From the NCBI GenBank assembly GCA_041652815.1, contig JBAZGN010000002.1:238261-302260 (forward strand): a stretch of DNA of 64,000 nucleotides. The letters are read 5' to 3'. How positions within the stretch are numbered: the first letter of the stretch is position 1; every line of letters starts with the position of its first letter. The notes below the pieces were generated by a model. It saw nothing but the letters and a program-made list of their open reading frames with translations. It searched no databases and had not been told where the DNA came from. Source of the stretch: Candidatus Omnitrophota bacterium. GTDB lineage: Bacteria; Omnitrophota; Gorgyraeia; Duberdicusellales; 4484-171. Both the position numbers and the translations under genes were made by a program. Positions 9,408-58,081 of this stretch are shown one piece after another.

Positions 9408-10115
9408 ATGGCTAACAATCTTTCCAACATAAAAAAGTATTTCTTGGAAATGAGAGTAGGTGCTTTTTTTATCGGCGCGCTAATTTTGCTTTTGATTACG
9501 CTCCTCTCGATAAGAGAAACCACTTTCTGGAAGGGGACCCGTCTTCTAAAAGTAAGATTTAATTTTGCAGAAGGGCTTCGCCCGGCTTCTCCCGTACGGT
9601 TTTGCGGTGTAGATGTTGGTGAGGTTAAGTATGTTGAAGTCAAACAAGATGATGATTTACAGCCGTATGTATTTGTCTATGTAAAGGTAAGTACAGATTC
9701 ACGCATACCGAAGAATTCTTATTTTTTTATAAACTCTTTAAGTTTATTCGGAGAAAAATACCTTGAAATAGTGCCTCCCGTGAAGCCGGAAGGATTTTTA
9801 ACCGGAGGAGAAGTGGTTGAAGGAATCTCTCCAACGCCACTTTTTAACGTAGTTACCAATTTTAACAAGACCATGGAAGAGGTGAATGCTTTCGTGAAAG
9901 ATGGAAAGCTTAAGGAATCATTTGCAAACACAATTACTAATGTAGAAAAGATAAGTGCCGATGTGCGGCAATTAATAGAAGACGTGAGAAACAAAAAAGG
10001 CACTCTCGGCAAATTTTTTTACGATGATTCTCTCTATACTAAGACGGAAGAATTCATTGACGAGTTAAAAGAGAATCCCTGGAAATTACTTTATAAGCCA
10101 AAAGATGCCAAATAG
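9408..10115 (+). CDS. mlaD: MCE-domain protein MlaD-like
   Basis: A single N-terminal TM is followed by an MCE domain. There is a strong RBS GAGGAGG. It is the third gene of the mlaEFD-like set. Confidence 0.7.
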   Translation: MANNLSNIKKYFLEMRVGAFFIGALILLLITLLSIRETTFWKGTRLLKVRFNFAEGLRPASPVRFCGVDVGEVKYVEVKQDDDLQPYVFVYVKVSTDSRIPKNSYFFINSLSLFGEKYLEIVPPVKPEGFLTGGEVVEGISPTPLFNVVTNFNKTMEEVNAFVKDGKLKESFANTITNVEKISADVRQLIEDVRNKKGTLGKFFYDDSLYTKTEEFIDELKENPWKLLYKPKDAK

Positions 10116-10230
10116 CATAGCGCATAGCGCAAAGCGCGAAGCGTGAGAAACAGGAAGCAGAAGTCTTTATTTTCTATGTTCGAAATCTGCTATTTGTTTT
10201 CTTCATTTTTTCCGCTATGCGCCATGCTCT
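10116..10230. repeat. Intergenic dyad element (CATAGCGC / GCGCTATG words), singleton in this window
   Basis: CATAGCGCATAGCGCAAAGCGCG lies at the 5' end. The 3' end is CCGCTATGCGCCATGCTCTATGCGCCATGCG, in the reverse-complement sense. Confidence 0.6.
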
Positions 10231-11580
10231 ATGCGCCATGCGATTATTATGTTTTATTGCTCCAATTGCGGATATAAATCGGTTAAGTGGTTAGGCAAAT
10301 GCCCTCTTTGCGAAGGATGGGAAACTTTTTTCGAAGAAAAGGAAGAGCTGCGTGATGGGGAAATTATTAAAGAAAAGCAAGCGCCTCGCCTTGTAAAAGA
10401 TATAGAAGGAAAAGATTATAACAGGATTGTAACAGGAATAGATGAGTTTGACCGCATAATCGGCGGAGGGCTCGTAAATGGAGAGATAATCCTTATAGGC
10501 GGAGAGCCGGGAGTCGGCAAATCTACCCTTCTTTTAGAAATTTCATCAGCCTTGGCGGCTAAAGCAAAAACTCTCTATGTGAGCGCCGAAGAATCTCCCC
10601 ATCAAGTATCCTTACGCGCAAACAGGCTTAATACCCAGGATAGCAATCTTTACATTCTGGGAGAAGATAATCTTGAAACTGTCTTCGGCTACATAAAAGA
10701 GCATGGTTTTAAATTCATAGTTATAGATTCGATACAAGTTGTCTGGAACGCGCGCTCCGAAGGGCCAAAAGGAAGCGTTTCGCAGCTTAAAGGCTCTGCC
10801 GATTATCTTACTCAGATTGCCAAGTCTTTGAATGTAGTTATTTTTGTCGTCGGCCATGTTACTAAAGAAGGAGTAATCGCAGGGCCTAAACTACTTGAGC
10901 ATATTGTTGACTGCGTTCTTTATTTTGAAGGGGAAATCCTTTCCAATTACAGGATTCTGCGCGCAGTTAAAAATCGATTCGGCCCTACCGGAGATATCGC
11001 GGTATTTGAAATGTTATCCAGCGGCCTTAAAGAAGTCAAAAAGACTACGGATCTTTTTCTTCCCCATAAAGATGAAGCTATTTCCGGAAGCTCCGTCGTC
11101 TGCGTTATAGAGGGGTTACGGCCTTTACTTATTGAGTTACAGTCCCTTGTGAGCAAGGCCAGTTTCGGGGTTGTTAGAAGGCGAAGCCTTGGGTTTGATT
11201 TTAACAGATTTTCTTTACTTATTGCCATAATCGAAAAGAGGCTTAAAATGTCTCTTTCGAGCGAAGATGTGTTTTTAAATGTCGCAGGAGGCCTTAAGAT
11301 AAATGATCCCGCTGCTGACCTGGGAGCAGTAATTGCAATAATTTCAAGTTACAAAGAAAAAGAGCCGCCTCTAAGCAGCGCATTTATTGCCGAGGTAGGC
11401 CTGGCGGGAGAGCTTCGACGTGTCAGCAATATAAATCTAAGGCTTAAAGAAATAGGAAGAGCGGGGTTTGCGCGCTGTTTTATCCCGGAAAGTAATTTAA
11501 AAGATGTCGACGCCAAGTTTAAATTTAAAATAGAAGGGTTTTCTTCTTTAAAAGAAGTTATAGAAAAAATCTGGAGGTAG
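10231..11580 (+). CDS. radA: DNA repair protein RadA/Sms
   Basis: N-terminal C4 zinc finger CSNCGY...CPLCEGW, RecA-like Walker A GEPGVGKST and a Lon-protease-like C-terminal domain. ATG 10249 is an alternative start. Confidence 0.9.
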   Translation: MRHAIIMFYCSNCGYKSVKWLGKCPLCEGWETFFEEKEELRDGEIIKEKQAPRLVKDIEGKDYNRIVTGIDEFDRIIGGGLVNGEIILIGGEPGVGKSTLLLEISSALAAKAKTLYVSAEESPHQVSLRANRLNTQDSNLYILGEDNLETVFGYIKEHGFKFIVIDSIQVVWNARSEGPKGSVSQLKGSADYLTQIAKSLNVVIFVVGHVTKEGVIAGPKLLEHIVDCVLYFEGEILSNYRILRAVKNRFGPTGDIAVFEMLSSGLKEVKKTTDLFLPHKDEAISGSSVVCVIEGLRPLLIELQSLVSKASFGVVRRRSLGFDFNRFSLLIAIIEKRLKMSLSSEDVFLNVAGGLKINDPAADLGAVIAIISSYKEKEPPLSSAFIAEVGLAGELRRVSNINLRLKEIGRAGFARCFIPESNLKDVDAKFKFKIEGFSSLKEVIEKIWR

Positions 11581-12560: not shown

Positions 12561-12767
12561 AGAGATAATAGAGCCCATAAATCTTAGGTTACTCGCCTGT
12601 CACGGCAGGCAGGTTACGTAGGCCACAGGCTTTCAGCCTGCTGGGTAGGTTACGAAGGTTACATAAATAAAGTGATTTTAATGTAACTTCCGTAACTTTC
12701 GTAACTTAATTCTTCCGCCGAAGGCGAAAGAATTAACGTAACCTCCGTAACATTTATTGTAACGAAT
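12561..12767. repeat. Intergenic dyad element, family R2 (GGTTACG / CGTAACC words), copy A
   Basis: It has multiple GGTTACG words, then AATGTAACTTCCGTAACTTTCGTAACTT, with the embedded GC hairpin CCGCCGAAGGCG. It is related to 44449..44593. Confidence 0.7.
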
Positions 12768-44448: not shown

Positions 44449-44593
44449 AAGGTTACGAATGTTACGCAGGTTACGAATGTTACGCAGGTCACACTTAATC
44501 ACGATGGTTCAATGTAACTTTCGTAACTTCCCGTAACCTGCCTCGCCTTGCTCGGCAAGGCGGGCATCCGTAACCCTCGTAACCCAAATAACA
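44449..44593. repeat. Intergenic dyad element, family R2, copy B
   Basis: It runs GGTTACGAATGTTACGCAGGTTACGAATGTTACGCAGG ... AATGTAACTTTCGTAACTTCCCGTAACC, with the GC hairpin CCTCGCCTTGCTCGGCAAGGCGGG. Confidence 0.7.
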
Positions 44594-46357
44594 ATGAATA
44601 TAATTTTAGTTGGTAATGCCAATGTTGGTAAAAGCGTTATCTTTAACGCGCTTACCAGAAGCTATGTCACTGTTTCGAATTACCCGGGCACAACCGTAGA
44701 CATATCAAAAGGCATAGCGAAACTCGGGCTACAGAATTTTACAGTCTACGATACGCCCGGGATAAACAGCCTCATCGTTCATTCCGAAGATGAAAAAGTA
44801 ACCCGCGATATACTTTCAAAAAGCGATATCACCTGCGTTGTACAGGTTGCTGACAGTAAAAACCTCAAACGTTCGCTTGTGCTCACCCTTGAGCTTATTG
44901 AATTGGGCCTGCCACTGGTGCTTAACCTAAATATGAGCGATGAAGCAAAAGAACGCGGCATAAGCATAGACATAAAAAAACTTTCTCAAAAATTGGGTAT
45001 AGATATTGTCGAAACAGTAGCGGTAACCGGAGAAGGTATTCCTAAATTAAAAGAAGCAATCTCCCGGGCGAAAACTACGCAACCGCCTAAAGGCTTTACT
45101 GTTTTTTCTTCTGATGAAATAGCCTCACTTAGGAAAAAAAATCAGAAAATTGAAGAATTATTGAGAGATATTTTGCGTATTTCAAAACCAAAAGCCAAAA
45201 GCGCGTCTGAATTTATAGGCGCTCTTACTGTAAGCCCCATAAGCGGAATACCAATACTTATTGTTGTGCTTTTTATAATGTATCTTTTTGTTGGTAGGTT
45301 AGCTGCTGTGTGGGGTGTAGATTTTTTTGAAAATAAGATATTCGGCCAATATATTAACCCGTTTTTAGGTGGTATTATAGATAAATTTATTCCAATACCA
45401 ATCGTCAAAGAATTTTTGATGGGTCAATATGGTATTATCAGCATGGCTGTTACTTACGCATTTGCCATAATATTTCCGATAGTAACTGCATTTTTTTTAT
45501 TTTTTGGAATACTCGAAGATTCAGGATACCTGCCGCGGCTTTCTGTGCTATCGGACAAGGTTTTTAGGATAATCGGGCTTAACGGCCGCGCAATACTTCC
45601 AATGGTGCTCGGCCTTGGCTGCGGCACAATGGCAACGCTGACCTCGCGGATATTGGAAACAAAAAAAGAGCGTATTCTGGTTAGTATTATACTTACGCTG
45701 GCGATTCCCTGTTCTGCACAGCTGGGCGTGATTATGGCAATGCTTAGCCAGTTTTCGCTAAGGGCATTTCTTCTTTGGTTTTCCACGATTCTTTTCGTCA
45801 TAATCACTATTGGATTTTTATCTTCGAGATTAGTTCCGGGTAAGCGTAGCCCATTTATTCAGGAATTACCTCCGATGAGGTTTCCCCAGATTGCAAACAT
45901 TATTGTAAAGACCGGCGCCCGCCTTAAATGGTACTTAAAAGAAGCAGTGCCTTTATTTATCCTTGGAACATTTATACTCTTTGTATCCGATAAAATAGGA
46001 TTGTTAAATTTAATAGAAAGAGTTTTAAGCCCATTTATTGTAGTCTGGCTGCATTTACCCAAAGAGACAACGGCTGCATTTATTATCGGCTTTTTACGAA
46101 GGGATTACGGCGCCGCCGGATTGTATCAATTGGCAAGAGCAGGCGTACTTGATAAAATACAAATTTTCGTAAGCCTTATTGTAATAACCTTGTTTGTGCC
46201 CTGTATTGCGCAGTTTTTCGTAACAGTTAAAGAAAGAGGCCTTAAAGTTGCGCTTATGATTGCCGGTTTCGTATTTCTTTTTGCATTTTTGGCAGGAGGG
46301 CTCTTGAATCATTTGTTGCGTTATTTGATTTTGGTGAAGGGGATAGCAGTGTTATAA
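44594..46357 (+). CDS. feoB: Ferrous iron transporter FeoB
   Basis: The N-terminal G domain (GNANVGKS, DTPG) is followed by a polytopic membrane domain. Confidence 0.8.
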   Translation: MNIILVGNANVGKSVIFNALTRSYVTVSNYPGTTVDISKGIAKLGLQNFTVYDTPGINSLIVHSEDEKVTRDILSKSDITCVVQVADSKNLKRSLVLTLELIELGLPLVLNLNMSDEAKERGISIDIKKLSQKLGIDIVETVAVTGEGIPKLKEAISRAKTTQPPKGFTVFSSDEIASLRKKNQKIEELLRDILRISKPKAKSASEFIGALTVSPISGIPILIVVLFIMYLFVGRLAAVWGVDFFENKIFGQYINPFLGGIIDKFIPIPIVKEFLMGQYGIISMAVTYAFAIIFPIVTAFFLFFGILEDSGYLPRLSVLSDKVFRIIGLNGRAILPMVLGLGCGTMATLTSRILETKKERILVSIILTLAIPCSAQLGVIMAMLSQFSLRAFLLWFSTILFVIITIGFLSSRLVPGKRSPFIQELPPMRFPQIANIIVKTGARLKWYLKEAVPLFILGTFILFVSDKIGLLNLIERVLSPFIVVWLHLPKETTAAFIIGFLRRDYGAAGLYQLARAGVLDKIQIFVSLIVITLFVPCIAQFFVTVKERGLKVALMIAGFVFLFAFLAGGLLNHLLRYLILVKGIAVL

Positions 46358-46443
46358 TATTACGCAGATGATCACAGTTAAAATCATCTGTGATCATCTG
46401 TTTTGCTATCTGCGATCATCTGCGTATAAAAAAGGAAAATAAA
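46358..46443. repeat. Intergenic dyad element (CAGATGATCACA words)
   Basis: GCAGATGATCACAG...ATCATCTGTGATCATCTG...CTGCGATCATCTGCG lies between feoB and the regulator gene. It may be the operator for the DtxR-like repressor. Confidence 0.5.
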
Positions 46444-47097
46444 ATGGATTATAACCAAAGAATCGAAGAGGCTTTAACTATAATCTGGGAAGAAAGAGAA
46501 AAGAAAATCTCCAATAAAGATGCGATAGCAAAAAGATTCTTGGAGGCTGTTAACGAAGACGTTTCCGAGAGTCTATTAAGCGAAGGATTTGTTTTAATAG
46601 AAAAAGATATTATAAAATTTAGCAATAAAGGCGAATCTAAGGCGAGAGATATCATTAGGCGCCAGCGTTTGGCAGAACGCCTTTTGATGGATGTGCTTGA
46701 ACTTGGTAGGAGGGAAGTTGATTCTTCAGCCTGTGCTTTTGAGCATATATTGTCGAAAGAGGTTGAAGAAAGCATCTGTACGCTTTTGGGCCACCCTAAA
46801 GAATGCCCTCACGGTTTAAGTATTCCAGCGGGTGCATGCTGCGAAAAAGCAAAAGGCTTAATTGAAAGTATTGTCATACCGCTAACCAAGCTTAAAGTCG
46901 CAGAGACGGGAAAAATTGTTTATGTCTTGACAAGAAATCACCCTCAACTCCACAGGCTTATGTCTTTTGGCATTGTGCCGGGTGCAAGAATAAAGCTTCA
47001 CCAAACCCAGCCATCTGTTATAATACAGGTTGAAGAAACGCAAGTAGCGCTGGAAGAAGAAATAGCGAAAGAAATTTATATTAAGAAGATAAGCTAA
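46444..47097 (+). CDS. DtxR/MntR-family metal-dependent repressor with C-terminal FeoA/SH3-like domain
   Basis: It has an N-terminal wHTH plus dimerisation region with metal-site His/Cys/Glu. The C-terminal SH3-like segment is KIVYVLTRNHP...IKLHQTQ. Confidence 0.5.
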   Translation: MDYNQRIEEALTIIWEEREKKISNKDAIAKRFLEAVNEDVSESLLSEGFVLIEKDIIKFSNKGESKARDIIRRQRLAERLLMDVLELGRREVDSSACAFEHILSKEVEESICTLLGHPKECPHGLSIPAGACCEKAKGLIESIVIPLTKLKVAETGKIVYVLTRNHPQLHRLMSFGIVPGARIKLHQTQPSVIIQVEETQVALEEEIAKEIYIKKIS

Positions 47098-47144
47098 CAT
47101 TTATAATAAATTGATACCTAAGCTATTTGTAATTTAAGATAGCA

Positions 47145-47282
47145 AATTAAACAGGGGAGGTCGTGAAACGACCTGAGAGTTCCCGTAAACGGGATTACCC
47201 TTTGAACCTGTTCCGCTTTAGGCGGAACCACCTAAATATCTGTATGGGGTGGTGGTCTGGATAATGCCAGCGTAGGGAGTAG
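47145..47282 (+). promoter_or_regulatory. TPP (THI-box) riboswitch
   Basis: The GGGGAGG...CTGAGAG J3-2, ACCCTTTGAACCTG and CTGGATAATGCCAGCGTAGGGAG core are present. It lies upstream of thi4-thi4-thiM-thiE. Confidence 0.7.
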
Positions 47283-47297
47283 GTGTAATCATAATTA

Positions 47298-47330
47298 ATC
47301 CTTGTGTTGCTGGCACAAGGATTTTTCATT
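47298..47330 (+). terminator. Intrinsic terminator (riboswitch expression platform) ATCCTTGTG-TTGCTGG-CACAAGGAT + TTTTT
   Basis: It is a 9-bp stem plus a U-tract immediately 3' of the aptamer and 5' of the thi4 RBS. Confidence 0.6.
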
Positions 47331-47346
47331 TTAACAGGAGGTTGCG

Positions 47347-48147
47347 ATGTTTGAAAGGGTAAGTGAGGCGCAAGTAAGCAGGGCGATTGTCGGTGAATTT
47401 ACTAAATGGTTTCAGGAATATATTGTTTGTGATGCAATTATCATAGGCGGCGGACCAAGCGGGCTTGTAGCGGCGAAAGAATTGGCAAGCTCAGGATTTA
47501 AAACTTTAGTAGTTGAGAGTAATAATTATATCGGTGGAGGTTTCTGGATTGGTGGATATTTGATGAATACCTTAACCTTTCGATCGCCTTCCCAGGAAAT
47601 CCTTGATGAGCTTAAAATTCCATATAAAGAGGTAGAGAATAATTTGTTTGTTTCTGATGGGCCTTCGGCATGCTCCAAACTCATTTCTGCCGCATGTGAC
47701 GCGGGGGTAAAAATTCTTAACATGACAAAATTTGACGATGTTGTGCTTCGAAACAACAGGGTGGAAGGGGTTGTTATTAATTGGACGCCAGTATCGGCAT
47801 TACCAAGAGCTATAACTTGTGTAGATCCTATTTCGTTGGAGTCCAAGATTGTTATTGATGCTACAGGGCACGATGCATGGGTTTGTAAAAGTTTGGAAAA
47901 AAGGCATTTAATAAAGCTTGAAACTTTTGGCCCTATGGATATTAATACTTCGGAAGATGCTGTAGTTGAAAAGACAGGAGAGATTTATCCGGGCTTGTTT
48001 GTGTCAGGTATGGCCGTATCTACAGCGTATGGTATACCTCGTATGGGCCCGACTTTTGGTGCGATGTTGTATTCCGGTAAAAAAGTGGCAAGTCAGGTAA
48101 AGAAAATATTATCAGCTAATTCCCAAGATTTACTTCATGTCAAATAA
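47347..48147 (+). CDS. thi4: Thi4-family thiazole synthase, paralog 1
   Basis: The FAD/NAD Rossmann motif IIGGGPSGL, the ATGHDA motif and the C-terminal GMAV...GIPRMGPTFGAM motif are present. Confidence 0.75.
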   Translation: MFERVSEAQVSRAIVGEFTKWFQEYIVCDAIIIGGGPSGLVAAKELASSGFKTLVVESNNYIGGGFWIGGYLMNTLTFRSPSQEILDELKIPYKEVENNLFVSDGPSACSKLISAACDAGVKILNMTKFDDVVLRNNRVEGVVINWTPVSALPRAITCVDPISLESKIVIDATGHDAWVCKSLEKRHLIKLETFGPMDINTSEDAVVEKTGEIYPGLFVSGMAVSTAYGIPRMGPTFGAMLYSGKKVASQVKKILSANSQDLLHVK

Positions 48148-48201
48148 CCCCATTGACATGCTGTTAATGACGAAACAGATTTTTATAAAAAAGGAGTAAA
48201 A

Positions 48202-48975
48202 ATGCAGCTAGATGAAATTAAAATTTCCAAAGCTATCATTGAGTCGTTTAACAAAAAATTGATAGATGCCTTGGATGTTGATGTGGCGATAGTTGGAGCA
48301 GGCCCTGCTGGAATGGTTTGCGGCTATTATCTGGCAAAAGCTAATAAGAAAGTTGTGCTTTTTGAGAGAAAACTTTCAGTTGGAGGAGGAATGTGGGGCG
48401 GTGGAATTATGTTTAATGAAATTGTAGTACAGGCTGCGGCCAAAAGAATCTTGGATGATTTTGGCGTTAAAAGCCGGCTTTATGAGAAAGGTTATTACCT
48501 TGCTGATTCGATTGAATCTGTTTCAGTTATCTGTTCGAAAGCGGTTCAGGCAGGATTGAGGATTTTCAATCTAATTAGCGTTGAAGATGTAATGGTGCGG
48601 AGCAAAAAAGTAACCGGGCTTGTGTTAAACTGGACAGCAGTTGAAATGGCGAATTTGCATGTTGACCCGATTACAATGCGGGCTAAATTTGTAGTGGATG
48701 CGACAGGCCATCCAGCAGAAGTGGCAAGGATTGTTGAAAGAAAATCAGGCATAAGGCTTGAAACTAAAACCGGTAAAACCATGGGCGAAGAATCAATGTG
48801 GGCAGAAGTCGGAGAAGATACCATTGTGAAAAATTCCAAAGAAATTTGCCCCGGCTTATATGCATGCGGTATGTGTGCAAATGCCGTATTCGGCGGGCCA
48901 CGCATGGGCCCGGTATTTGGCGGAATGCTTTTGGCCGGAGAGCATGTTGCAAAAGACTTGCTCAAGGTGCTTTAA
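48202..48975 (+). CDS. thi4: Thi4-family thiazole synthase, paralog 2
   Basis: The [15 protein letters not shown] and GMCA...[12 protein letters not shown] motifs are present. Confidence 0.7.
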
Positions 48976-49012
48976 AGTTATAATATAATTTATTGTGTGG
49001 GGGTGCGTTAAT

Positions 49013-49816
49013 ATGATTAAAACAAAAATTGATGTGTGTAGTTTATTAAAGAAAATCAGAAAAGAGAAGCCAATTGTGCACCATTTAACCAATTGGGTTA
49101 CGATTTATGATTGTGCAAACATAGTAAAAGCGGTGGGTGCTTCTCCGGTTATGGCGCACGCCAAAGAGGAAGTCGCTGAAATGGCGAATATTGCCTCAAG
49201 CCTTGTTTTAAATATCGGAACGCTAACGCCCGAATTTGTTGAGGCAATGAAAATTGCTGCCAGAAGTGCAAATAAAAAGGGAATTCCTGTTATCCTTGAT
49301 GTTTGCGGCGCAGGCGCAACGCGGTTACGCGATGAAAAATCTTTTGAGTTGTTAAATGAAGTAAAGATAGATATTATTAAAGGAAATGCTTCCGAAATTG
49401 TGAGGCTTTCCGGAGAAAACATTCGGACAAAAGGCGTAGATTCTGCCGAGGTCGAGCAAGATATACTTGCTGTTAGTGGGTGGCTTGCAAACAGGTTTAA
49501 AGCCGTTATTGTAGCCACAGGCAAGCATGACATTGTAAGAGGTAAAGACAAGAGCTATATTATAAAAAATGGCCATCCGATGATGACGCATGTTGTAGGA
49601 ACTGGCTGTATGGCAGCATCGGTTATCGGAGCATTTGCCGCCGTTAGCAAAGATTTAATTTATGCAGCCTCATCTGCGCTTGTATGTTTTGAGGTTGCTG
49701 CAGAGCTTGCTGCTAAAAAATCCAAAGGCCCGGCTTCGTTTAAGGAGGAACTATTTGATCGTATTTTCAATTTAGACGAAAGAACAATCAATAAAATGCA
49801 AAAGATATATTTATGA
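49013..49816 (+). CDS. thiM: Hydroxyethylthiazole kinase
   Basis: The ThiM-like core includes the ...MMTHVVGTGC region. RBS GGGGGTG is 5 nt before ATG 49013. Confidence 0.8.
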   Translation: MIKTKIDVCSLLKKIRKEKPIVHHLTNWVTIYDCANIVKAVGASPVMAHAKEEVAEMANIASSLVLNIGTLTPEFVEAMKIAARSANKKGIPVILDVCGAGATRLRDEKSFELLNEVKIDIIKGNASEIVRLSGENIRTKGVDSAEVEQDILAVSGWLANRFKAVIVATGKHDIVRGKDKSYIIKNGHPMMTHVVGTGCMAASVIGAFAAVSKDLIYAASSALVCFEVAAELAAKKSKGPASFKEELFDRIFNLDERTINKMQKIYL

Positions 49817-50418
49817 AAGGTTATTATTTTATTACAGGTAGCTTTTTAAGCCGGCTTGGAAACGTAAGTGACGTTAAAAATGCTTTGAAGGCAGGAGTAA
49901 AAATCGTGCAGTACCGTGAAAAAAATGCGGCTACTTACGAAATGTATATCGAAGCGCTTAAGTTAAGAAAAATCTGCAAAGACATAATTTTTTTGATAAA
50001 CGATAGAGTCGATATAGCTTTGGCATCCGGCGCAGACGGCGTTCATCTTGGGCAAAGTGATTTACCGTATCGAATGGCAAGAAAATTATTGGGAAAAAAG
50101 AAAATCATTGGAGTTACCGTGCATAGTTTAAAAGAAGCTAAGGTGGCACAGGCTAAAGGCGCTGATTACGTGGGTATTGCGCCGATATTTCCTACCTCAA
50201 CAAAACCGGATGCAAGAAATCCCGTAGGAATAGAATTAATACAGGAGATAAAAAAGCATATAAACTTACCTATAGTAGCTATAGGCGGTATAAATCTTTC
50301 AAATGCCAAGGAAGTGATTGCATCCGGAGCCAATTGTGTATGTGCTATATCTGCAGTGGTTGCCAGCAAAAACGTAAAGCGTCAAATAAATAAATTTCAA
50401 AAGATGTTTAATGCTTAG
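49813..50418 (+). CDS. thiE: Thiamine-phosphate synthase
   Basis: The TIM-barrel ThiE motifs INDRVDIAL...GADGVHLGQSD are present. The length is 201 aa. Confidence 0.85.
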   Translation: MKGYYFITGSFLSRLGNVSDVKNALKAGVKIVQYREKNAATYEMYIEALKLRKICKDIIFLINDRVDIALASGADGVHLGQSDLPYRMARKLLGKKKIIGVTVHSLKEAKVAQAKGADYVGIAPIFPTSTKPDARNPVGIELIQEIKKHINLPIVAIGGINLSNAKEVIASGANCVCAISAVVASKNVKRQINKFQKMFNA

Positions 50419-57585: not shown

Positions 57586-57742
57586 GTAATTGCTAGAAGC
57601 AGATTGCCGTGGATATTCGTTTCTATATTTACCCCTCGCGCCTATATATCGTGTAAATTTTCTCGGCCTACGGCCAGGAAAATTTACACGAAGCGCTTCG
57701 GGGTTAATTTTCCGCCTCAGGCGGAAAATTAAGGAGGTCCAT
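57586..57742. repeat. Intergenic dyad element, family R6, copy B
   Basis: It runs CGTGTAAATTTTCTCGGCCTACGGCCAGGAAAATTTACACG, then GCGCTTCGGGG and the CCGCCTCAGGCGG hairpin. Confidence 0.6.
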
Positions 57743-58081
57743 ATGAAAATAGAGGATTTGACCGGTAAGTTGGTTCTGTTTAAATTTTCTGAAGAAATAC
57801 GCTCAGATTTGTCGCTTTTTCAAATTTATAAAGACGAAATTTGGGCTTTGGTTACCGGCGTTGATGATATGGGCATATGGATAGAAAACCCGGCATATGA
57901 GCTTGGAATATGGTGGGATGAAAAAGGAAATTTAATACCACCGCACAAACAGGTGAAAGAAAAAGTAAAAACTGATATATTTATGCCCTGGCGTTATATA
58001 AAGGTTCTCATGAATGTGGTCGATGAAAGGTTTCAAAAGTCTAAAAACGAAAGGCTTCCGGGATTTCAGTCTTATAAATAA
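57743..58081 (+). CDS. Hypothetical protein (112 aa)
   Basis: The strong RBS AAGGAGG precedes ATG 57743. The upstream in-frame extension in the ORF track runs through the repeat. Confidence 0.45.
   Translation: MKIEDLTGKLVLFKFSEEIRSDLSLFQIYKDEIWALVTGVDDMGIWIENPAYELGIWWDEKGNLIPPHKQVKEKVKTDIFMPWRYIKVLMNVVDERFQKSKNERLPGFQSYK

Follow-up and report, generated by a model that had tools for sequence, protein, structure and literature searches.

A probable TPP riboswitch with a two-hairpin insert between P4 and P5 in the thi4-thi4-thiM-thiE leader of a Candidatus Omnitrophota bacterium

The leader of the first thi4 gene in the analyzed window (the whole 64,000-nt stretch of Candidatus Omnitrophota DNA given above) combines the conserved motifs of a TPP (THI-box) aptamer with 46 nt of additional sequence, raising the question of whether an aptamer expanded in this way still operates as a TPP riboswitch and of what the additional sequence represents. 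The aptamer occupies 47153..47278 of the window, with all conserved core motifs intact. Its elements and those immediately upstream are listed below; the names P4a and P4b were coined in this analysis.

47111..47140, + strand: promoter-like TTGATA-18 nt-TAAGAT (sigma-70-like), from a consensus scan only
47143..47295, + strand: whole span of the RF00059 (TPP) match, nominal P1 strands included, 46.6 bits
47153..47158, + strand: 5' strand of P2, AGGGGA, with its partner at 47195..47201
47159..47173, + strand: P3 hairpin GGUCG-UGAAA-CGACC (GGTCGTGAAACGACC), from RF00059 and the family model
47173..47179, + strand: CTGAGAG, read in the sequence
47174..47178, + strand: UGAGA of J3-2, the pyrimidine-sensor T-loop motif, equal to the invariant consensus
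47181..47194, + strand: optional P3a hairpin UCCCG-UAAA-CGGGA, present in the Rfam consensus structure
47195..47210, + strand: 3' strand of P2, J2-4 and 5' strand of P4, UUACCCU-UUGAA-CCUG, an invariant THI-box block
47197..47210, + strand: ACCCTTTGAACCTG, read in the sequence
47211..47256, + strand: 46-nt insert between the 5' strand of P4 (CCUG) and P5, that is, in J4-5
47211..47227, + strand: P4a, the first inserted hairpin, UUCCGC-UUUAG-GCGGAA, from MFE and centroid folds
47228..47256, + strand: P4b, the second inserted hairpin, CCACC...GGUGG, followed by 1 nt, from folding and covariation
47257..47278, + strand: P5 CUGG-AUAAUG-CCAG, J5-4 CG, 3' strand of P4 UAGG, and GA, invariant in the family
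47257..47279, + strand: CTGGATAATGCCAGCGTAGGGAG, read in the sequence

The upper-case consensus blocks of RF00059 (GGGG, CUGAGA, ACCCuUuGAACCUg and CGuAGGGA) are all matched at this locus. The blocks that make up the ligand pocket, namely UGAGA in J3-2 (whose role is described in passages of PMC2258182 and PMC3764141), the GGGG/ACCC of P2, GAACCUG, the CG of J5-4 and UAGGGA, are likewise present, and they are invariant in a family of 11 related leaders that is introduced below. Helices P2, P3, P4 and P5 follow one another in canonical order, and the outer pair of P2, the P3 helix and one P5 pair covary within the family. The P2 outer pair takes the forms AU, CG and UG in an unfitted MAFFT alignment and AU, GU, UG and CG in a model-fitted alignment, in which all five P3 pairs show changes on both sides and P3a, reported in passages of PMC2258182 for 552 of 907 TPP aptamers, also covaries. 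P4 is nearly invariant, and covariation there therefore says little either way. P1 presents three of five standard pairs in the Rfam alignment and, by eye, no consistently pairing register in the 11 leaders; the promoter-like site implies a predicted transcript start near 47147, which leaves about 6 nt 5' of P2. Thermodynamic folding alone, whether as single-sequence MFE or with RNAalifold on the full leader, did not reproduce P2 and P4 and mis-paired the THI-box core (UUCC with GGGAA-type sequence), and these methods were used for the peripheral stems and the terminator only.

The 46-nt insert starts directly after the equivalent of G60, replaces the usual 2-nt J4-5 bulge and ends 1 nt 5' of P5, so that the internal loop between P4 and P5 becomes a four-way junction of P4, P4a, P4b and P5. 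Folded alone, it forms two helices (z = -3.5 against shuffled sequences). The first-pass annotation had already recognized a THI-box aptamer, some 45 nt holding two additional hairpins, and a terminator platform followed by the thi4 RBS, all of which agree with the present results. It had assigned the insert to J2-4, however, when the insert actually lies in J4-5, past the CCUG strand of P4. It was also right that a first extra hairpin exists, but the sequence of that hairpin is TTCCGCTTTAGGCGGAA (17 nt) and not TTCCGCCTTTAGGCGGAA, which has one C too many, and the further hairpin that it listed after J3-2 is nothing unusual, being the standard optional P3a.

At the gathering threshold, an Rfam scan of the whole window returned no match to RF00059. 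With permissive filters the model scored 46.6 bits, short of the gathering score of 54.3 yet well beyond chance (E = 4e-8 for a 451-nt stretch and 5.6e-6 for the whole window), through an alignment in which a local end jumps eight consensus positions of the P5 loop (L5) and absorbs 52 nt. The P5 hairpin CUGG-AUAAUG-CCAG is intact, yet it lies beyond the reach of the model across the insert, and the score falls below the gathering value because the 46-nt insert makes the model skip L5. Among 18 insert-bearing loci from the genome scan reported below, 17 also fell below the cut-off, with only L077 (57.2 bits) being called. Judging from the printed alignment and from these 17 loci, the insert alone is probably the cause of the deficit. 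The first-pass annotation had proposed that an Infernal score below the gathering threshold would speak against the riboswitch; the score is formally below it, but this is not a valid refutation, because the local end discards L5 and 17 of 18 similar loci also miss the threshold.

We assembled a family of 11 distinct related leaders from Candidatus Omnitrophota MAGs and metagenomes. The nearest look-alikes of the window leader among the genome-scan matches listed were the Candidatus Omnitrophota MAGs L109, L097 and L101, and a scan with a family-specific pattern added eight further loci from metagenomes. The Thi4 protein of the window was also found on contigs of JGI sample 3300014205 and of two ENA assemblies, with a leader identical to that of the window wherever the leader is covered. 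Across the family, identity to the window is 77-95% in the 5' core and 95-100% in the P5-P4 block, 60-96% in the expression platform and 52-67% in the insert. In L125, the flanks are 92-100% identical to those of the window and the insert (55 nt) is quite different.

The inserts of the family span 39-55 nt, and all 11 form two top-level helices and no more, joined by a linker of 0-1 nt, with 0-2 nt 5' of the first and 0-3 nt 3' of the second (z between -2.9 and -7.5 against shuffled sequences). RNAalifold, without being told of them, recovers both insert stems with compensatory changes (CG:6 UA:5; UA:3 CG:3 AU:3 GC:1). In L101 and L128 the MAFFT alignment places the 5' arm of P4a one column off, and in L121 and L125 it likewise displaces the 3' arm of P4b; for that reason alignment-free folding and a model-fitted alignment were also used. 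In the unfitted alignment, the canonical fold with P4a and P4b pairs in 93.7% of cells, compared to 33-56% when the partners are slid, and four of five P4b pairs carry double changes. In the model-fitted alignment the share of pairing cells is 96.1%, and double changes are seen in 23 of 33 pairs, among them 5/5 pairs of P4b and all five modelled pairs of P4a (four in the stem and one inner). Since a fitted alignment leans towards its model, the unfitted count is the conservative figure. Furthermore, a covariance model trained on the other 10 leaders, with the window left out, recovers 47153..47278 at 129.5 bits (E = 3e-33); the locus is the sole match of the family model in the 64 kb and contains no non-standard pair. 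The family model also finds two-hairpin aptamers in Synergistaceae, Spirochaetales, Luteitalea and Syntrophomonadaceae, and a second copy in L097. The comparison of orthologous leaders advocated in the first-pass annotation finds the two hairpins kept in every leader with compensatory changes, and this conservation and covariation lend weight to its suggestion of a functional aptamer or a variant subclass.

Downstream of the aptamer, the leader contains the elements of an expression platform:

47265..47278, + strand: antiterminator 5' strand UGCCAGCGUAGGGA, common to the P5 3' strand, J5-4 and the P4 3' strand
47297..47323, + strand: terminator stem-loop AAUCCUUGUG-UUGCUGG-CACAAGGAUU, from a terminator scan and family covariation
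47299..47315, + strand: antiterminator 3' strand UCCUUGUGUUGCUGGCA, equal to the terminator 5' arm and loop
47322..47332, + strand: terminator T-run TTTTTCATTTT, from the sequence and the terminator scan
47336..47349, + strand: RBS AGGAGG (47336..47341) and the ATG of the first thi4 (47347), beyond the terminator stem

The terminator stem covaries in the family (for example UA:6 CG:5 and GC:8 AU:3 with RNAalifold), and its 5' arm and loop are unusually conserved, apparently because they are complementary to the 3' strand of P5/P4. In the window, the duplex of 47265..47278 with 47299..47315 has a predicted energy of -18.2 kcal/mol (z = -4.2), and the corresponding duplexes of the 11 leaders range from -14 to -19 kcal/mol (z between -2.2 and -4.2 relative to shuffled partners). 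With the aptamer strand left free, the antiterminator is the MFE structure of the 3' segment of the window (-19.3 kcal/mol, versus -14.3 for the terminator), and the terminator forms in folding once that strand is made unavailable. The full-length switch between antiterminator and terminator is seen in the MFE structures of 5 of the 11 leaders; in the other six, the full-length MFE retains the terminator even with the aptamer strand free, and switching there would therefore have to be kinetic. In the nascent RNA, before the terminator 3' arm has emerged, the antiterminator helix forms in 11/11 leaders.

These alternative helices suggest an antiterminator/terminator OFF switch. When TPP is absent, UGCCAGCGUAGGGA would pair with UCCUUGUGUUGCUGGCA to form the antiterminator, and the operon would be read through; when TPP is bound, the same strand would be locked in the aptamer, the terminator would form and transcription would stop at the T-run before the RBS. 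Because the RBS lies outside the terminator, control would be mainly transcriptional.

The genes placed under this predicted control form an operon that spans 47347..50418, directly downstream of the aptamer and terminator:

47347..48147, + strand: thi4 (Pfam Thi4)
48202..48975, + strand: thi4 paralogue (Pfam Thi4)
48995..49816, + strand: thiM, hydroxyethylthiazole kinase (Pfam HK)
49813..50418, + strand: thiE, thiamine-phosphate synthase (Pfam TMP-TENI)

The leaders of the relatives likewise precede thiamine genes, lying before either thi4 paralogue, and the second Thi4, ThiM and ThiE of the window are about 90%, 82% and 75% identical, respectively, to their counterparts at the Omnitrophota loci, which marks the source of the window as closely related to those MAGs. 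Upstream of the riboswitch lie metW, feoB and a DtxR-type repressor with a FeoA domain.

Several features of these genes and of the related contigs were recorded alongside. The tandem Thi4 paralogues are about 36% identical to each other, and the relatives have one or both of them. Both proteins carry a DATGH motif, which we take to be that of the non-cysteine, sulfide-dependent type. In L097, each thi4 paralogue has a separate riboswitch copy: the second two-hairpin TPP aptamer of that contig (4359-4487, minus strand; 100.7 bits with family model R1) has a slightly altered J2-4 (UCAUAACCUG) and its own terminator, and lies upstream of a thi4-1-type gene. In L109 (307-314) and L127 (7452-7459), a copy of GAACCTGA, the same sequence as J2-4 and the 5' strand of P4, occurs about 10 nt upstream of P2, and could be a chance match, part of the promoter or a decoy for the 3' strand of P4.

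Elsewhere in the window, positions 44594-47097 hold feoB and then a gene in which a C-terminal FeoA domain is joined to a DtxR-type metal-binding/dimerisation domain (Pfam Fe_dep_repr_C) and which sits directly upstream of the riboswitch; an inverted repeat (46361-46426) lies between the two. Tandem 9-nt units (AGGTTACGA / ATGTTACGC) occur at 44450-44485, just after metW, and dense GTAAC/CGTAAC units flank a GC hairpin in the intergenic region at 12640-12760; either set may represent a dispersed repeat or an array of protein-binding sites. The leader at 57652-57742, preceding an ORF with its ATG at 57743, contains a long hairpin followed by AATTTTCCGCC-TCA-GGCGGAAAATT immediately before the RBS. 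The small stem of this leader equals P4a of L122 and L124 and is probably a generic GC hairpin, and the leader may be a regulatory 5' UTR. Weak, sub-threshold Rfam matches to MIR8643 (10112-10244; 33.5 bits versus 135, E = 0.006) and BtsR1 (47006-47042; 16.9 bits versus 66) were taken as chance.

We also analyzed the distribution of comparable inserts with a scan of one genome from each species, which looked for THI-box cores whose GAACCTG is separated by 24-54 nt from the GG of P5. At least 120 loci were returned, and 119 of the 120 listed carry hairpin inserts at the P4-P5 site, which are thus present in at least 119 species from many phyla. The only exception is L098 (Thiodictyon MAG, minus strand, ~650-740), which was considered as an aptamer nested within an aptamer and rejected; it is a canonical aptamer whose P1 region contains a chance ACCC..GAACCTG, making it a false positive of the scan. 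The other matches listed belong to Paenibacillus (34), unclassified Bacillota (20), Syntrophomonadaceae (13), cyanobacteria (13), Dethiobacteria (11), Sumerlaeota (6), Omnitrophota (3) and single members of about ten other groups. The 121 inserts folded (matches listed plus the window) have a median z of -3.3, with 85% below -2 against shuffled sequences, and comprise 110 with one hairpin and 11 with two. Among the matches listed, inserts of both kinds typically start with UU, AU or AA. The median one-hairpin insert is 28 nt long; inserts of this kind usually leave 3-4 unpaired nt on the 5' side and 0-1 nt before P5, and the two-hairpin inserts have spacers of 0-2 nt.

Taken together, these data make it very likely that the locus is a genuine TPP riboswitch that turns off thi4-thi4-thiM-thiE when TPP is abundant, with the insert as a self-contained side-arm. 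Conservation, covariation, gene context and the alternative helices indicate that the riboswitch is probably functional, and from these sequence features TPP binding and the regulatory outcome are predicted. G60 in J4-5 and C77/G78 in J5-4 are conserved nucleotides at the pyrophosphate site (PMC3764141). The 0-1 nt linker between P4a and P4b suggests that P4a stacks on P4b and that P4 stacks on P5 as usual. In that arrangement the insert would be a self-contained side-arm and the pyrophosphate pocket would stay as it is, and such a separate arm would explain the invariant pocket nucleotides. The sequence of the insert appears to drift freely, with only its ability to fold on itself being kept. 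The insert may nevertheless affect affinity, because it adjoins nucleotides that contact the pyrophosphate (PMC3764141).

A stronger role for the two hairpins can be proposed tentatively, although it is on balance unlikely: they would be a functional module whose four-way junction buttresses the pyrophosphate-sensor arm or tunes its affinity, Mg2+ dependence, folding speed or thermostability, and would define a true structural subclass. The persistence of both hairpins in 11/11 family leaders and in the second L097 copy, before two different thi4 paralogues, is in line with such a role, as is a family linker of 0-1 nt, which suits a coaxial stack and recurs in 9 of the 10 two-hairpin inserts among the matches listed, including three Omnitrophota loci. 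Two-hairpin inserts are also found in Acidobacteriota (L069), Synergistota (L054), Spirochaetota (L085) and Bacillota (L093 and L096), and the pocket nucleotides G60, C77 and G78 are next to the site. Against this, neither loop nor stem sequences are conserved, insert length varies from 39 to 55 nt, L125 combines flanks nearly identical to those of the window with a wholly different insert, and most lineages have one hairpin or none; moreover, variable insertions acting as inert stem-loops are already a general rule in passages of PMC2258182. A broader notion is that TPP riboswitches have repeatedly expanded at J4-5 under selection, with the Omnitrophota-type double hairpin forming a perfect four-way junction in which the P4a/P4b stack acts as a brace or tuner. 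It would then be a distinct subclass that evolved independently in several phyla and that annotation at the Rfam threshold mostly overlooks; this is possible but on balance unlikely.

The sub-gathering RF00059 score and the weak P1 might instead point to a decayed, non-functional THI-box, in which the insert broke the P4/P5 geometry and the low score marks a relic. This is very improbable: all conserved core positions are intact, the architecture and its compensatory changes are kept in 11 leaders that differ in host and downstream paralogue, and the complementarity between terminator and antiterminator is conserved. In addition, the P5-P4 block remains 95-100% identical beside a drifting insert, which indicates purifying selection on the core.

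It is also highly unlikely that the insert came from a dispersed palindromic (REP/MITE-like) repeat, one copy of which had jumped into the aptamer. P4a-like TTCCGCC-NNN-GGCGGAA hairpins do occur at three other sites of the window, and L125 differs from the window only in the insert. A search allowing up to three mismatches gave six P4a-like matches against 0.3 expected, a total that includes two self-matches and takes the palindromic site at 57710 twice. However, P4b occurs only once in the window, 47211..47256 belongs to no repeat family in the 64 kb searched, the remaining P4a-like sites amount to short generic GC hairpins within other leaders, target-site duplications are absent, and the inserts of the family diverge gradually at stem bases. 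A repeat of this kind was rejected as the source of the insert, near-identical copies of the unit not having been found in the 64 kb.

Finally, although the insert begins right after the G60 equivalent, beside the pyrophosphate pocket, a shift of specificity from TPP to, for example, a thiamine precursor or analogue is extremely unlikely because no pocket nucleotide differs (UGAGA, the equivalents of G60 and C77/G78 in the CG of J5-4, the P5 U-turn loop and ACCC/GGGG are all unchanged), and the regulated genes are the ordinary thiazole branch and thiE.

The main value of this riboswitch variant lies in annotation and in the structural tolerance of the aptamer rather than in new biology. Threshold-based annotation under-calls TPP riboswitches with one or two P4-P5 hairpins, and with 17 of 18 insert-bearing aptamers below the gathering score, the TPP regulons of such groups are probably under-annotated; thiamine regulons have likely been missed in Paenibacillus, Dethiobacteria, Syntrophomonadaceae, some cyanobacteria, Sumerlaeota and Omnitrophota. 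Furthermore, these natural variants show that the J4-5/J5-4 loop can be converted into a three- or four-way junction beside the nucleotides that contact pyrophosphate and Mg2+, which makes them useful for aptamer engineering, structural scaffolding and revision of the family model.

Compared with known systems, riboswitch class, ligand, context and control logic are textbook, and it is the two-hairpin, four-way-junction architecture that is unusual. The locus shares with the TPP/THI element of RF00059 (E. coli thiM and B. subtilis tenA leaders) P2, P3, the UGAGA T-loop, ACCC...GAACCUG, the P5 U-turn loop, the CG in J5-4, UAGGGA and a position upstream of thiamine biosynthesis genes, and its terminator-based OFF platform is like that of many Firmicutes TPP examples. 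It differs from RF00059 in having 46 nt and two hairpins in place of a 2-nt J4-5, a pyrophosphate arm built on a four-way rather than a two-way junction, a weak P1, and a predicted switching strand that is the 3' strand of P5/P4 and not P1. Many riboswitches tolerate long, non-conserved "variable insertions" that form stable stem-loops at specific sites, and real matches with insertions at unusual positions score low (Barrick & Breaker 2007, in passages of PMC2258182). P4a and P4b resemble the insertions described there in their non-conserved sequence, stable stem-loops and low covariance-model scores, although for TPP the passages concerned name P3a and not a P4-P5 insertion site. A search of the full-text literature found no explicit mention of a P4-P5 hairpin insert in a TPP aptamer; an earlier depiction, for instance in figures, is possible. 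The single-hairpin J4-5 aptamers of Paenibacillus, Dethiobacteria, Syntrophomonadaceae, cyanobacteria and Sumerlaeota use the same site, with a hairpin that abuts P5 (0-1 nt) and, as in the canonical J4-5, UU, AU or AA as the usual first nucleotides. They form a three-way junction with 3-4 unpaired 5' nt, in contrast with the two hairpins and 0-1 nt spacers of the window. Lastly, in eukaryotic TPP riboswitches, as described in passages of PMC3597705 and PMC2258182, the strand that switches partners also belongs to the P4-P5 pyrophosphate domain and not to P1; its partner there is a 5' splice site, whereas in the window the predicted partner is an intrinsic terminator, through its 5' arm and loop.
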